Of a stretch of DNA of 64,000 bases, positions 19,821 through 30,742 are shown one piece after another (the first letter of the stretch is position 1; each line of letters starts with the position of its first letter). Origin of the DNA: Candidatus Woesearchaeota archaeon (GTDB lineage Archaea > Nanobdellota > Nanobdellia > SCGC-AAA011-G17 > JACPIM01); contig CAZELK010000004.1 of the NCBI GenBank assembly GCA_964513145.1, positions 29,939 through 93,938 of the forward strand. Reading direction: 5' to 3'. The translations under genes and the position numbers were made by a program. The notes below the pieces were generated by a model. The model searched no databases and was not told the DNA's origin. It worked only from the letters and a program-made list of their open reading frames with translations.

Positions 19821-21011
19821 CTATTTCTTAGGGAGTTTGTACAAAGAATAAGGAGCGATACCTATACCGAGTTTATCAAACATATAATCACTTATTTCTC
19901 CACCAGTCATACCTTTTCTTCTAAGAATAATAAGTTTATTTCTAATTTTAGGATTTAAATCTCTAATTAAAACTCTTTTTTTGATCATTTTAGCTAATCT
20001 TTTTAGTTTTCTTTTTCTACCTTCTGCTTTTAAGAAAATATTTATTTTTAAGGCGTTTAAAATACTTTCCTCATTTGAGACTGAAACCGCATCACCATCA
20101 GGATAAGAATGAATTTTTAGTTTTTTAAGAATTTTTATAAAAAGTTCTTTATTTGGATCACAAGCAATTTCTACTCTCCAAAAATTATGGGCTGAACCAT
20201 CACCATCACATACTCCTTGCAGGAATGATATTAAAAATTTAGTTGGACAATCTAATAACCAATTCATTCTAACATTATTGTATGTTGTCCCTTCATTTTC
20301 TTTTAATCCTAGACAAGTTTTTATTAAGAATTTTATGAATGGGGATTTTTCTGATATCCACCTATATAAGCCAAATGGTCTCCTCTTTTCTATTTTATTA
20401 TAATCTTTTATTCTCTTAGCTTTTATACCTAAATAATTAAAATTTTTGGATGTAAAATTTCCTATTTTTAAACTCCAATCATATTTTTTAGTAAGTGCTA
20501 GAAGAAATTGATTAGAAAATCTATATCCTTTGGGTTTACTACTATCGCTAACCATCATTCCCAATATGTATGCAAGGGCTTTTTCTTTTAATTTATGATT
20601 CGAATTATTTTTGCCAAGTTGGTTAATTACATAAGTGATCTCTTTATAAGAATTAATTTTTAGTGAAACTTCAATATAAGAATTATAAGTATGCCCACCT
20701 TGTTTGGAATGCAATGGTAATAATTTATTTCTTTTTTTAATTTTAATATTGGGAACAGATTCGGCTAATAAGATCAAATATGGTTTACATATTAAATTAT
20801 TCCTAACTTTATTGTAATCTAATCTTAATTTTTTAGCTATTTGAGCACAAGATAAACCTTTATTTTTTAAATTTGTAACTTTGAAGTAATTTTTGCATCT
20901 TGTTCTATGGGTTGTGTAAAATTCTCCGCTTATTAAATCTTCATAAAAATATAGTTTCTTTAATCTATTTAATAATTCTTTAATACTATTTATTTCGTTT
21001 GCACTAACCAC
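19821..21011 (-). CDS. free-standing double-motif LAGLIDADG endonuclease-like protein with HTH segments
   Basis: LAYILGMMVSDS and FLQGVCDGDG motifs; no intein termini; no host intron seen. Confidence 0.8.
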   Translation of the reverse strand: MVSANEINSIKELLNRLKKLYFYEDLISGEFYTTHRTRCKNYFKVTNLKNKGLSCAQIAKKLRLDYNKVRNNLICKPYLILLAESVPNIKIKKRNKLLPLHSKQGGHTYNSYIEVSLKINSYKEITYVINQLGKNNSNHKLKEKALAYILGMMVSDSSKPKGYRFSNQFLLALTKKYDWSLKIGNFTSKNFNYLGIKAKRIKDYNKIEKRRPFGLYRWISEKSPFIKFLIKTCLGLKENEGTTYNNVRMNWLLDCPTKFLISFLQGVCDGDGSAHNFWRVEIACDPNKELFIKILKKLKIHSYPDGDAVSVSNEESILNALKINIFLKAEGRKRKLKRLAKMIKKRVLIRDLNPKIRNKLIILRRKGMTGGEISDYMFDKLGIGIAPYSLYKLPKK

Positions 21012-21014
21012 CCT

Positions 21015-21506
21015 TTATATTTTTAATTTCTTCTTGTTTTTTGGATAATTTCTCTTTTCATATTCCAGTAATTTCTTTTTTAAAAAAACCACTTCAACAG
21101 AATTATAATTTGGAGTAAAGTCGCCTTTTCTATTAAATTGTTCTAGGCAGTGTTTTATTTCTTCAATATCAGCTAAATCTAGTTCTTCATCATTCCATAA
21201 ACAAACTAATCTGTCTTCTGGATAAAAATATTTGAAATAATCATCATTAAAATGACCGCATTCAGCACAATACAAATTCAAACCAACTTCTCTTATCCAG
21301 AATTGCGGTTCTCTTTCTTTCCCCATAACTTTGAATTCTCTTTTTTCTTCTTCAATTATTCCCCAGACAATTTCAAGATAAAATAATGGCGATTTACAAT
21401 AAGAACATAGTACTGGATTATCTTGTTGTGCTAAACTCCATCTTCTAGTAGATTTTATACTATCTGCAATTAGTACTGATTTGTTTATTCTTTCAACTTC
21501 GTTCAT
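21015..21506 (-). CDS. hypothetical Zn-ribbon protein
   Basis: CSYC and CAEC pairs; ATG 21506 (MNEVER) lies just past the RNA closing stem. Confidence 0.65.
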   Translation of the reverse strand: MNEVERINKSVLIADSIKSTRRWSLAQQDNPVLCSYCKSPLFYLEIVWGIIEEEKREFKVMGKEREPQFWIREVGLNLYCAECGHFNDDYFKYFYPEDRLVCLWNDEELDLADIEEIKHCLEQFNRKGDFTPNYNSVEVVFLKKKLLEYEKRNYPKNKKKLKI

Positions 21507-21515
21507 TTTATTGTA

Positions 21516-21735
21516 ATTGCCGATAGTGAAACGCACTTGTAATTTGAGCTTTGAATTTTGAGCCTTGACTATGGTTATGATAAGCTTTGAACTTTGGTCT
21601 TTTAGCCCACCAGCCCTGTCATGGGAACAAAATGATTTACTTTATTCGGATGTAGACTCAAAACAAAATAAATCAAAGCACTATCTCGAACTATCGGCAA
21701 CTTATCTATTTGATAGATAAGCAAAAATTTGGCAG
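21516..21735 (-). ncRNA. candidate structured ncRNA downstream of the DIP1984-family gene
   Basis: 11-bp perfect closing inverted repeat (21517-21527 / 21690-21700), 9-bp hairpin 21701-21721, 7-nt tandem repeats 21543-21599, no ORF. Confidence 0.65.
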
Positions 21736-22194
21736 CTAAATTAATAATTCCGCAGTCCAATTAGTTATTTGTATTTTATTATCTAAATTTGTTTTTTCTA
21801 CTTGTAATTTCTCGATTTCTTCTTCTATTTTTTTCTCTTCAATTAATGGGTGTTTGTCTACATCATTTTTTTCTCTAAATAAGTAATCTCTTTTTCTCTC
21901 AAATAAATTGCCCATATCTGAAATCCTTGCTCTTAGATCGCTTATTTTTAATATTGCTTCTGCTACTGTAATATCACCATCAATAAGTCTTATGCCTAAA
22001 TTAGTTTTTTGAATCTTTAATTTTAATTGCTTAATTTCTTCTGTTTTTTCATTAATTTGTTTAGTTAAATCCCTTATATCGAATGGTGGTTTTTTCTTAG
22101 TTTCAATGTAGAAGTTTTCTTTTCTTAAATTTACTAACCTAGATAATCTTGCTTTTTCTTTTTTCAACAATGACAATGCTTCACCTAATTTCAT
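21736..22194 (-). CDS. DIP1984-family (DUF6847-like) coiled-coil protein
   Basis: MKLGEAL start, L...I..TN, T.AEAI, and LD..IQ..NW...L end, all characteristic of the family. Confidence 0.8.
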   Translation of the reverse strand: MKLGEALSLLKKEKARLSRLVNLRKENFYIETKKKPPFDIRDLTKQINEKTEEIKQLKLKIQKTNLGIRLIDGDITVAEAILKISDLRARISDMGNLFERKRDYLFREKNDVDKHPLIEEKKIEEEIEKLQVEKTNLDNKIQITNWTAELLI

Positions 22195-22253: not shown

Positions 22254-22463
22254 CTACACTGATTTTTCTTTACCGTCCAAATAAGTTATAAAACATGTTC
22301 TATTATTCTCATCTTTAGCTAAATAACTGAATAATAGCTTACCTTTTTGCAGACATGACCCTATTGCGACTAATTTGTTTATAGAAATACTAAATGTTGC
22401 TCTTTTTTGTGAAACTTTACATTTCCAGCCGATATTATCAAAAATTATTTCCATCAAATACAT
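22254..22463 (-). CDS. small protein, possibly AbrB/SpoVT-like DNA binding
   Basis: 69 aa; CKVSQKRATFSISINKLVA...LQKG beta-rich pattern. Confidence 0.55.
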   Translation of the reverse strand: MYLMEIIFDNIGWKCKVSQKRATFSISINKLVAIGSCLQKGKLLFSYLAKDENNRTCFITYLDGKEKSV

Positions 22464-22570
22464 AAATATAATTTAATATATAAGTGTTAGGCAGATATCT
22501 GAAATGTCCAGTAGTTTTTTGTCTAGTGAAATTAAATGAATTATATTGTTGATATAAGTCGTAATAAAAT

Positions 22571-22679
22571 CCGGAAGATTTTCGGTGTCCAGTTGGTATT
22601 TCCTGAAAAGTTTTCGGTTTAATATTTAAATAAGCCAAAAGATTTACGAAACTAAGTGTAAAAACCGGAAGATTTTCGG
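22571..22679. repeat. four quasi-palindromic sites at ~31-bp period (operator/iteron-like)
   Basis: CCGGAAGATTTTCGG at 22571 and 22665 (identical); degenerate CCTGAAAAGTTTTCGG at 22602 and CCAAAAGATTTACGA at 22635. Confidence 0.7.
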
Positions 22680-22719
22680 AAGTAAAGATTATAAACTATT
22701 AAGAAATTGAAAAAGTGAC

Positions 22720-28399: not shown

Positions 28400-28417
28400 A
28401 ATACAAAATTGATTATT

Positions 28418-30742
28418 ATGATTAAAAAAATAGGCGTTAAAACAAAAAAATTAATTGAAAGGGACACTAAAGTAATAAGCCCATCTTTGACAAGAGAATA
28501 TGAATTTGCTTTTCAAAAAGGAAAGGGTGTTTTTGTTTATGATGTTGACAATAAAAAATATCTTGATTTTGCTGCAGGGGTTGCTGTAAACAGCCTGGGT
28601 TATGGAAATAAAGAAGTAATTAATGCAATTAAAAAACAATTAAATTATGGAGTTCATATTGGGTTTAGTGATTTTTATTGCGAGAAACCAGTTGAATTTG
28701 TCGAGCTTCTTTTAAAATTTTTACCAAATAATTTACAAAAAGCTTTTTTATCAAATTCAGGAACTGAAAGCATTGAATGCGCAATGAAGCTAGCTAAATG
28801 GCATACAAGAAGAAAGTGGTGCATTAGTTTTAATAATTCTTTTCATGGAAGATGTTACGATGAACAGACAGAAGTTTTAACAGAAAGTGGCTGGAAATTT
28901 TTTAAAAATTTAATTAAAGAAGATAAAGTGCTAACTTTAAATTTAAACAACAATAGTATTGAATATCAAAATCTTGTTGGCATATATTCTTATGACTATG
29001 ATGATGAATTGATTCATTTCAAAAGCTCATCTATTGATTTATTGGTTACTCCAAATCATAATATGTTAGTGGAATTCAAAGGAAATATTTCTCTAATTGA
29101 AGCAAATAAAGTTCGCACTCATATGAAGATACCAAGATCAGGAAATTGGATGGGAATTGAAAAACAAAAATTTATACTTCCAGCTATTCAAATAGAGAGA
29201 TCTTCTCGAAATGGAAATGTTACTTTTCAGGAAATTAGGGAAAGAGAAATACTGTTAAATTTATGGGTGAAATTTTTTGGGATTTGGCTTGCTGAGGGGT
29301 GGACTTCTTCTATAACAAAAGAATGCTATAATACTGGGATAGCTCAAAAAGATTCAATAATTTGCAATAAAATTGAAAATTTATTAAACGAAATGGATTT
29401 TAAATATAGTAAAAGAGAGAAAAAAAGAAATTGTTATGAATATATAATACAAGAAGGCAAACAATTATGGTCTTATTTAAATCAATTTGGCGGTTCTCAT
29501 ACAAAGTTTATTCCTGAAGAAATAAAAAATCTACCCCCCGATTACTTAAAATTATTATTAGAATGGATGTGTTATGGAGATGGTACAATAGATAAATCAA
29601 ATAGAAACATATATTTTACTTGTTCAAAAAAATTGGCTGACGATGTGCAAGAAATATTTTTAAAAATTGGTTCAAATGCTAGAATTTATAGTAGAAAAAG
29701 AAAAACTACTTTTTCAAAATCGGAATGTATATTTTATGAAGTAAGAGAAAGAAAAAGAAGTCATCATCTATTGTGGACTAAAAAAGGAGCAATAAAAAAA
29801 GAAAATTATTGTGGAAAAGTTTATTGCTGCGAAGTTCCGAACCATGTTATTTACGTAAGAAGAAATGGCTACCCAGCTTGGTGTGGTAATTCTTACGGGA
29901 GTTTATCTTTAACAGATTCTAAAAAAGTTCATAAAGAAAGATTTGAACCTTTTTTGCCTGTAAAACATGTTCCTTATGCAGACACTTATAGATTTAATGG
30001 AAATAAAGATGAATGTGCAAATCATTGCCTGAATGAACTTGAAAAAACAATTAATGGATTACAAAATGATGTTGCAGCTATTTTTCTGGAACCTATCCAG
30101 GGGGAGGGCGGATATATTGTGCCGCCAGTTGAATTTGTAAAAGGTGTAAGAGAAATTTGTGATAAATATAACATTTTATTGGTTGCTGATGAAGTTCAAT
30201 CAGGCTGCTACAGAACTGGAAAATTTCTAGCTATTGAGAACTTTAAAATTAAACCAGACATAGTTTGTTTAAGCAAGGCTGTTGGTGGTGGACTGCCTTT
30301 GGGTGTTACTTTAGCTTCCAATGAAATTATGGATTGGGTTCAAGGGAGTCACGCAAACACACTTGGCGGAAATTTATTAAGCTGCAGTGCAGGAATTGCA
30401 ACTTTAAATTATTATAAAAGACATAAGATATGGAATAATGTCTTGAATGTTGGGGAATTTATTTTAAAAAAATTAGAGAAATTAAAAAAAGAACATGAAG
30501 TTATTGGTGATGTTCGTGGCATTGGTTTAATGATAGGGGCTGAATTTGTTGACAATAAAAAAAATAAATGGTATAATGTCGACTTCAGGGATAAACTATT
30601 GTACAAATGCAAAGACAATGGACTAATATTAATTGGTTCTGGAAAAAGTGTAATTAGACTTTGTCCGCCTTTAATTTTGAATAAGAAAGAAGCTAACTTG
30701 GGTTTAAATATATTTGAAAATTCTATTAAAAAAATTAATTAA
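28418..30742 (+). CDS. class III PLP aminotransferase (ornithine/4-aminobutyrate type) precursor containing an intein
   Basis: YLDFAAG, NSGTES, FHGR|S, EPIQGEGG, DEVQSG, SKAVGGG; about 430 aa after splicing. Confidence 0.92.
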   Translation: MIKKIGVKTKKLIERDTKVISPSLTREYEFAFQKGKGVFVYDVDNKKYLDFAAGVAVNSLGYGNKEVINAIKKQLNYGVHIGFSDFYCEKPVEFVELLLKFLPNNLQKAFLSNSGTESIECAMKLAKWHTRRKWCISFNNSFHGRCYDEQTEVLTESGWKFFKNLIKEDKVLTLNLNNNSIEYQNLVGIYSYDYDDELIHFKSSSIDLLVTPNHNMLVEFKGNISLIEANKVRTHMKIPRSGNWMGIEKQKFILPAIQIERSSRNGNVTFQEIREREILLNLWVKFFGIWLAEGWTSSITKECYNTGIAQKDSIICNKIENLLNEMDFKYSKREKKRNCYEYIIQEGKQLWSYLNQFGGSHTKFIPEEIKNLPPDYLKLLLEWMCYGDGTIDKSNRNIYFTCSKKLADDVQEIFLKIGSNARIYSRKRKTTFSKSECIFYEVRERKRSHHLLWTKKGAIKKENYCGKVYCCEVPNHVIYVRRNGYPAWCGNSYGSLSLTDSKKVHKERFEPFLPVKHVPYADTYRFNGNKDECANHCLNELEKTINGLQNDVAAIFLEPIQGEGGYIVPPVEFVKGVREICDKYNILLVADEVQSGCYRTGKFLAIENFKIKPDIVCLSKAVGGGLPLGVTLASNEIMDWVQGSHANTLGGNLLSCSAGIATLNYYKRHKIWNNVLNVGEFILKKLEKLKKEHEVIGDVRGIGLMIGAEFVDNKKNKWYNVDFRDKLLYKCKDNGLILIGSGKSVIRLCPPLILNKKEANLGLNIFENSIKKIN
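28853..29890 (+). mobile_element. 346-aa intein with LAGLIDADG homing endonuclease
   Basis: CYDEQTEVLT (block A), VTPNH (block B), GIWLAEG and MCYGDG motifs, ends CEVPNHVIYVRRNG..AWCGN then Ser+1. Confidence 0.93.

Follow-up and report, generated by a model that had tools for sequence, protein, structure and literature searches.

Systems are known in which a protein reads a series of short RNA motifs or is encoded beside the RNA that it binds. In the trp leader, bound by TRAP, and in the hut leader of Bacillus subtilis, bound by HutP, an oligomeric protein reads short RNA motifs at fixed spacing; the HutP sites are NAG triplets separated by 4-nt spacers and thus have a 7-nt period. Both are β-rich ring proteins that act on 5′ leaders and control the termination of other genes. 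Ro60/Rsr and the Y RNAs form a conserved protein–noncoding RNA pair encoded side by side, without a rail of repeats. In VIPR, the RAMP/RRM protein Vipr is paired with a vrRNA of 5-nt YNNGG repeats with hypervariable NN, and the system is mostly phage-borne (bioRxiv 10.64898/2026.04.26.720920). Here, we describe a gene–RNA pair from a Candidatus Woesearchaeota archaeon (GenBank assembly GCA_964513145.1). It lies in a stretch of 64,000 nt (contig CAZELK010000004.1, positions 29,939 to 93,938 of the forward strand), which is called the window below and in which all positions are numbered from its first letter. The pair comprises a gene of the DIP1984/DUF6847 family (21736–22194, minus strand), described so far as encoding a protein of unknown function, and a noncoding RNA of ~205 nt that follows it (21517–21722, minus strand). 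We consider it reasonably probable, from comparative sequence evidence, that the two form a ribonucleoprotein in which dimers of the protein read a rail of 7-nt repeats (heptads) in the RNA.

The RNA element in the window

The 229-nt gap behind the DIP1984 stop codon folds at −66.5 kcal/mol on the minus strand (z = −6.07, with none of 200 shuffles as good), and the same gap on the plus strand gives z = −1.36. A fold that is stable on the gene's strand only points to G–U pairs and hence to RNA. The first-pass annotation, made from the letters of the window, had marked a perfect 11-bp inverted repeat (21517–21527 and 21690–21700), a hairpin (21701–21721), minus-strand heptamers of the type GNUCAAA (21543–21599) and a TGATTTA/TAAATCA stem, and all four are present at these positions. 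As delimited by the model and the fold, the element consists of a first hairpin (P0), a closing stack (P1–P2), two internal hairpins (P3 and P4) and the heptad array. P0 (21700–21722, minus strand) has 10 bp in the family-consistent fold, comprising 9 bp and a G–U pair; it begins 13 nt past the stop codon in the window and 0–3 nt past it in most homologues. Since P0 sits just behind the stop codon, the RNA is most likely transcribed together with the gene. The 5′ arm of P1 (21690–21700) is the perfect 11-bp complement of its 3′ arm (21517–21527), and the start codon of the next open reading frame (ORF) lies 10 nt further on. Inside P1, the 5′ strands of P1b and P2 (21677–21687) have as their partner 21528–21537 in the family-consistent fold. 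Just before these 3′ strands the family has a well conserved CAUAUACCUAUGCUUUUC-type segment, of which the window copy is divergent.

The stack encloses P3, a local AU-rich hairpin of 15 bp (21633–21675) that contains the TGATTTA/TAAATCA stem and the U-rich motifs, the short hairpin P4 (CCCAU/GUGGG, 21606–21625), which has weak support, and the heptad array (21538–21605), all on the minus strand. The array holds ~8–9 units of the type A-R-G-N-U-Y-A, mostly AAGNUCA, with one irregular unit in its middle. The first-pass annotation had also suggested that the repeats pair with the U-rich motifs of the 5′ half; such pairing occurs in the minimum-free-energy fold of this genome only, and across the family those bases are used in P3, and no pairing partner of the repeats is conserved. 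A competing fold between repeats and U-rich motifs may form in the window genome, as judged from that predicted structure.

A covariance model of the family (R1) scores the window at 95.6 bits (E = 5.5e-16, 21516–21701, minus strand), and the element is single-copy in the 978-kb genome, which is 98.8% complete. As to the novelty claimed for the RNA, no Rfam family was matched. Scanning the window with Rfam 15 at the gathering score returned one tRNA and nothing else, the element region gave noise only at E ≤ 10, and ten homologous loci gave tRNAs only at E ≤ 0.1.

A family of covarying RNAs behind DIP1984 genes

BLAST of the element against 60 relatives produced short chance matches only, the best of them within a protease gene, and homologues were therefore sought through the DIP1984 protein. 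In G015 and G008, two relatives that belong to other genera, DIP1984 is 51–54% identical, and behind its stop codon come a GCUUAUCU...AGAUAAG hairpin, a long closing stem whose letters differ yet remain complementary, and a row of heptads. The same layout was found in 14 full-length loci from genome bins of Woese-, Pace-, Nano- and Aenigmatarchaeota; a fifteenth genome-bin locus holds a DIP1984 fragment of 54 residues only. Metagenome contigs contributed 52 further DIP1984 loci.

R1 matched 56 of the 71 sources collected through DIP1984 homologues from DPANN archaea, every time on the gene's strand and ~25–35 nt past the DIP1984 stop codon. The element is present behind every close DIP1984 homologue that has at least ~200 nt of downstream sequence. 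The sources that lack a match are contigs ending less than ~200 nt past the gene, truncated genes, a 35%-identical Aenigmatarchaeota copy with a visibly shorter version of the element, and proteins of 24–31% identity that carry a different element.

Covariation was measured on a model-fitted alignment of 51 distinct sequences and on a structure-blind MAFFT alignment of 15. In the former, 87.6% of the cells are standard pairs, compared with 74.1% when partners are shuffled and 34–51% when the strands are slid by 1–3 columns, and changes on both sides occur in 28 of the 29 pairs. P1 is 99% paired with covariation at all of its pairs (10/10), and on the structure-blind alignment these values are 99.3% and 9/10; the covariation of the closing stem downstream of homologues, named by the first-pass annotation as a check on its proposal, was thus found. 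P2 is 83.5% paired with both-sided changes in 11 of 12 pairs (model-fitted). For P0, a blind MAFFT alignment of 40 loci gives 98.2% of cells paired, with both sides changing in six of nine pairs. G–U and U–G cells account for ~17% of P1 by our own count, and these are A–C mismatches on the opposite strand; P0 likewise has many U–G pairs that become mismatches if read on the other strand. For P4, the paired share of cells is 63.7% when the alignment is model-fitted and 46.5% when it is structure-blind. A long P3-like hairpin is shared by the single-sequence folds of homologues; it varies in length and is poorly aligned. These alignments show that a conserved RNA family with covarying structure exists on the sense strand of DIP1984.

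Linkage of the RNA to the DIP1984 gene

Two samples of genomes were used to examine co-occurrence. Among 61 relatives, R1 matches G000, G008 and G015, and a full-length DIP1984 is present in these three genomes and in no others. The second sample, an even set of 151 high-quality genomes of the phylum, has the RNA in G000, G008 and G122, and PF20935 exceeds its cut-off in the same three only. PF20935 also matched the control of that scan, Deinococcus radiodurans. The RNA of G122 was outside the training set of the model and sits 34 nt past the DIP1984 gene. One genome (G004) has a DIP1984 remnant of 54 residues and no RNA. At that locus (L041:1501–1680) the remnant follows an intact copy of a small ORF found upstream of DIP1984 in the window, and no RNA comes after it; the site looks like a decayed cassette.

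Neither gene nor RNA was found in the three other species representatives of the window genus, which marks the pair as accessory and as gained or lost in one piece. The gene 3′ of the RNA differs between loci, so that the RNA goes with DIP1984 and not with the gene that follows. As the small upstream ORF is seen both with and without the pair, the latter behaves as a ~700-nt cassette in a semi-conserved context, and it is apparently mobile between lineages. Taken together, the strand-specific fold, the covariation across the family and the co-occurrence with DIP1984 bear out the structured RNA that had been proposed from the window sequence.

The heptad array

Base identity at lag 7 is 0.547 across the family, compared with 0.30 expected (z ≈ 32); peaks of the same height recur at lags 14 and 21, separated by troughs; heptamer periodicity across homologues, the other feature that the first-pass annotation had wanted to see, is thus strong. 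Phasing from the 3′ end resolves eight units in most members, with the consensus A-R-G-N-U-Y-A, in which U5 and A7 are each conserved at 90%, G3 at 69% and A1 at 61%. The array is the best-conserved sequence segment of the RNA at 1.12 bits per column, which is comparable to the stems. A family-wide search for maintained complementarity between columns gave no helix within the array or between the array and other parts. Furthermore, a heptad weight matrix run over the genome to find a second array or a target site gave nothing above shuffled controls.

The DIP1984 protein

The gene encodes 152 residues predicted to fold as a four-helix bundle. Its assignment to the DIP1984 family, made in the first-pass annotation, holds: the match to Pfam PF20935 reaches 51.9 bits, for a cut-off of 27, and covers 137 of 141 profile positions, and the fold matches 3KDQ. 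NCBIfam NF038048 scores 65.5 bits, slightly below its cut-off of 70, in a full-length alignment with E = 5.9e-18. By its sequence, the protein of the window is a divergent archaeal branch of the family. An AlphaFold (AF2) model with 16 homologues as input has four helices and a predicted local distance difference test (pLDDT) score of 87.2. Foldseek matched it solely to 3KDQ, from Corynebacterium diphtheriae and the only solved member of the family, at a template modelling (TM) score of 0.84–0.86 and a probability of 1.00; the next match had E > 1. The protein is basic, with an isoelectric point (pI) of 9.28.

Prediction of a four-copy complex gave a self-association score of 0.68, and the best of three controls reached 0.01. 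The mark set for self-association is reached by 20 of 30 proteins solved as same-chain pairs and by one of 23 single-chain proteins. In the complex model, the runs share at least 10% of contacts and the pLDDT of the partner is at least 79. This pass may reflect memory, because the relative 3KDQ was crystallised with four chains. The predicted interface is twofold symmetric and runs along helices 2 and 3. Eight invariant residues lie off it (Lys2, Gly4, Glu5, Asn65, Ile81, Gln142, Asn145 and Trp146), in the places where helices 1 and 3 begin and helices 2 and 4 end. According to the up-down topology of the modelled bundle, and not to measured distances, they would converge on one of its poles, which we take to be the likely binding site for the invariant letters of the heptads.

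Full-text literature searching for DIP1984, DUF6847, PF20935, NF038048 and 3KDQ returned only the label 'septicolysin' on Acinetobacter plasmids, and no RNA partner for the family is recorded in Pfam, NCBIfam, Rfam or the literature searched. PADLOC gave a slight best match for the locus (E = 0.0067, 13.9 bits).

A proposed mechanism and its alternatives

In the ribonucleoprotein that we propose, the covarying stack P1–P1b–P2 would close a loop that contains one or two variable hairpins and ~70 nt of eight heptads. DIP1984, a basic four-helix bundle with predicted dimerisation, would recognise the invariant U-Y-A and G of each heptad, and several protomers (~eight, or four dimers) would line up on the rail to give a particle of defined size. 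The closing stems would keep the rail looped and might in addition shield the 3′ end of the transcript.

Several observations tell against this proposal. A symmetric dimer has no obvious fit to a row of repeats that runs in one direction, and the fold search found no RNA-binding relative of the four-helix bundle. Owing to the self-complementary CUUAAG, GAUC and UUAA, energy models predict partial pairing of the array; its mean pairing probability is 0.54 against 0.74 elsewhere, and opening it would cost ~13 kcal/mol on average and 18.6 kcal/mol in the window genome, so that the array might not be freely single-stranded. The window array is the least regular copy of the family, with a phase-test score of 19 compared with 25–31 for most members, an irregular unit of 8–9 nt in the middle and one unit in which C replaces U; its best five-unit score (21.8) lies inside the range of shuffled-genome maxima (19.0–23.7). 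Finally, the co-occurrence rests on few independent gains, with three genomes in each sample, two of them shared.

The main rival explanation is that the RNA is a purely cis-acting element of the DIP1984 transcript, acting in stability of the 3′ untranslated region (UTR), in termination or in autoregulation, or serving as a leader or insulator for the next gene. It draws on the position of P0, which abuts the stop codon, on the next ORF of the window, which starts 10 nt past P1 so that all three may form one operon, and on T-rich tracts that follow P1 in many loci. However, T-runs mean little in genomes of this kind (~29% G+C), and ~200 nt with eight sequence-conserved heptads far exceed the needs of a terminator or a stabilising hairpin. 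A leader for the next gene is ruled out, as the downstream gene is not conserved, and autoregulation through DIP1984 binding would itself be a protein–RNA interaction and so overlaps with the ribonucleoprotein. We regard a purely cis-acting role as unlikely, if still to be reckoned with. It is very improbable that the heptads act as DNA, in the manner of an iteron or centromere whose 7-bp direct repeats are bound by a dimer, with the flanking stems incidental. A row of 7–10 adjoining 7-bp repeats occupied by dimers is a familiar mode of DNA binding (the omega repressor of pSM19035; ParR/parC), DIP1984 is predicted to dimerise and its genes occur on many small plasmids. Nevertheless, three helices around the array keep their pairing by compensatory changes, with many G–U pairs that exist on the sense strand only, and the folding energy is strongly strand-asymmetric; a double-stranded site has no need for any of these features. 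The locus stands among the ordinary metabolic genes of a chromosome.

The heptads might instead be a gapped, programmable recognition code, in which protomers clamp the invariant G and U-Y-A and the variable letters (2, 4 and 6) of the eight units read a DNA or RNA target, by a VIPR-like logic of unrelated origin. The layout is indeed VIPR-like, with short tandem repeats of alternating conserved and variable positions, a structured part and a small dedicated protein gene. Yet the variable positions are constrained, the identity of a unit at a given index is partly kept between distant taxa, and no region of the RNA is more conserved than the array; in the one close pair judged by eye (L051 and L054) the array differs at ~5 of 56 positions and does not look hypervariable. 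The genome has no significant contiguous match to the element, in a search that did not extend to gapped-code targets, and the protein is a helical bundle and not a RAMP/RRM fold. Such a code therefore seems to us distinctly improbable. A type III-like toxin–antitoxin system, with the repeat RNA neutralising a toxic protein, would account for a small protein gene beside a repeat RNA with a hairpin between them, for the patchy, accessory spread (3 of 61 relatives, 3 of 151 genomes of the phylum) and for relatives carried on plasmids. We find it scarcely credible, as the repeats are of 7 nt and not ~36 nt, the RNA follows the gene instead of preceding it, and there is neither a nuclease fold nor a notable PADLOC match.

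Other identities were considered and rejected. A reduced signal recognition particle (SRP) RNA was suggested by an RF01857 search that missed SRP RNA in the genome and three congeners (0/4) and found it in 47 of 57 other relatives. The element has no helix 8 or other SRP motifs, and the genuine SRP RNA was located elsewhere, at contig C1:35680–35958 (minus strand, E = 2.5e-35), with an nhmmer profile built from the SRP RNAs of 20 relatives; at least in the window genome, the SRP RNA had thus been overlooked by the RF01857 search and not lost. A miniature inverted-repeat transposable element (MITE) or other repeated mobile element is not in keeping with a single-copy element and no second heptad array. 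Linkage to tRNA genes was dismissed, since these flank some distant loci and are merely occasional at DPANN loci. A viral origin of the DPANN type is not supported, as an IMG/VR scan gave only one distant relative and there were no PHROG matches. The closing stack, inspected by eye for a bulge–helix–bulge excision motif, has loops that are not 3-nt bulges 4 bp apart. A scan for G+C-rich islands as a guide to the noncoding RNAs of the genome was not discriminating.

The DIP1984/DUF6847 family is widespread, with members in bacteria, archaea and phages and on hundreds of Acinetobacter plasmids, where they bear the wrong label of a cytolysin. Pairing with an RNA provides its first concrete, testable lead, namely RNA binding, and adds a class of RNA that Rfam lacks. 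As the pair is small (~700 nt) and self-contained, it should be easy to express and purify. If the rail does set the number of protomers, this would be a new way to build a ribonucleoprotein of defined size.

Genomic context

Ordinary metabolic genes surround the DIP1984 locus in the window. Five sequencing runs contain the stretch, all of them DNA from groundwater metagenomes, and no RNA run is among those listed. The ORF that begins 10 nt past the RNA (21015–21506, minus strand) encodes a CxxC protein of 163 residues without a family match in Pfam, NCBIfam, PHROG or PADLOC scans. This neighbour varies between loci: by BLASTP, its homologues group behind the RNA in G015/L039 and L049, the DNA 3′ of the RNA in L056 visibly codes for its N-terminus, and most loci have something else there. 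Beyond it lies an ORF of 396 residues (19821–21011, minus strand) with an N-terminal helix-turn-helix (HTH; PHROG 3855, E = 1.3e-4). Its GVCDGDGS motif looks like that of a LAGLIDADG endonuclease, and Pfam gave no match. Two ORFs of 396 residues near the locus were compared and are not paralogues. At 28409–30742 (plus strand), a class-III aminotransferase gene is split by an intein with a LAGLIDADG domain.

Upstream of DIP1984 and on the same strand, a conserved small ORF encodes an all-β protein of 69 residues (22254–22463, minus strand). Versions of 65–70 residues are present in 10 of 16 loci, at 57–71% identity across DPANN lineages, which is better conservation than that of DIP1984. It has no relative in Pfam or the PDB, and its AF2 model is poor (pLDDT 64). 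In G010, G027 and G031 it occurs without DIP1984, and where the pair is absent it is directly followed by a zinc-ribbon ORF that elsewhere is positioned behind the RNA. The small ORF is a frequent neighbour and not an obligate part of the gene–RNA pair. In the gap between it and a divergent HIT gene (22530–22700), a CCGGAAGATTTTCGG motif occurs twice and, in degenerate form, a third time; the motif may be an operator or promoter element.

Distant relatives

Distant DIP1984-like proteins (24–31% identity), encoded on metagenome and viral contigs, have a different stem-closed element behind their gene. It is ~190–215 nt long and bounded by CGGUAG and GAGGGYGGG-N3-GGGG, with flanks that are complementary and covary; its 7-nt periodicity is weaker and it has no Rfam match. 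Copies lie at L109:979–1195, L110:755–948, L111:1964–2167 and L113:1969–2156. The last is the viral contig L123 (82.8 kb), in which the DIP1984-like gene and its RNA are enclosed by a phage-like array of nine tRNA genes, with five of these directly upstream. The first-pass annotation had placed the pair 'in an archaeon': the host is indeed archaeal, as shown by an archaeal RNase P RNA that scores 115 bits elsewhere in its genome, but the pairing is not confined to archaea, given these loci on metagenome and viral contigs. In the Aenigmatarchaeota locus L057, Infernal gave a tRNA-like match of 104 nt that lies 52 nt upstream of the gene and is not called by ARAGORN.

The 'septicolysin'/DIP1984 gene is found on 342 Acinetobacter plasmids. 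In the A. baumannii plasmid NZ_CP114382.1 it is followed by 322 unannotated bases (L124:1963–2284), which contain a closing stem of 11–12 bp with arms ~150 nt apart and fold with z = −2.25. The stretch is possibly another variant of the RNA, in a host that can be cultivated.

Comparison with known systems

The element has no match among catalogued RNA families, and the pair is like the systems described so far by loose analogy only. It shares with the Ro60 and Y RNA pair a gene that adjoins its cognate structured RNA and a long terminal stem that closes the RNA, although there is no similarity in sequence, fold or motif. With VIPR it has in common a small dedicated protein gene adjoining an RNA of short tandem repeats, in which conserved and variable positions alternate, and a conserved structured part; the DIP1984 RNA differs in its 7-nt unit and constrained variable positions, its protein is a helical bundle and the pair is chromosomal in DPANN archaea. 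The likeness to TRAP and HutP lies in a short motif repeated at a fixed spacing, here of 7 nt in eight phased units. However, DIP1984 is a four-helix bundle, and its RNA is closed by a stem, is encoded 3′ of the gene to which it belongs and has G..UYA as conserved letters. Compared with the DIP1984/DUF6847 family as described, the protein of the window is a member by Pfam score and fold, to which the RNA is now added.

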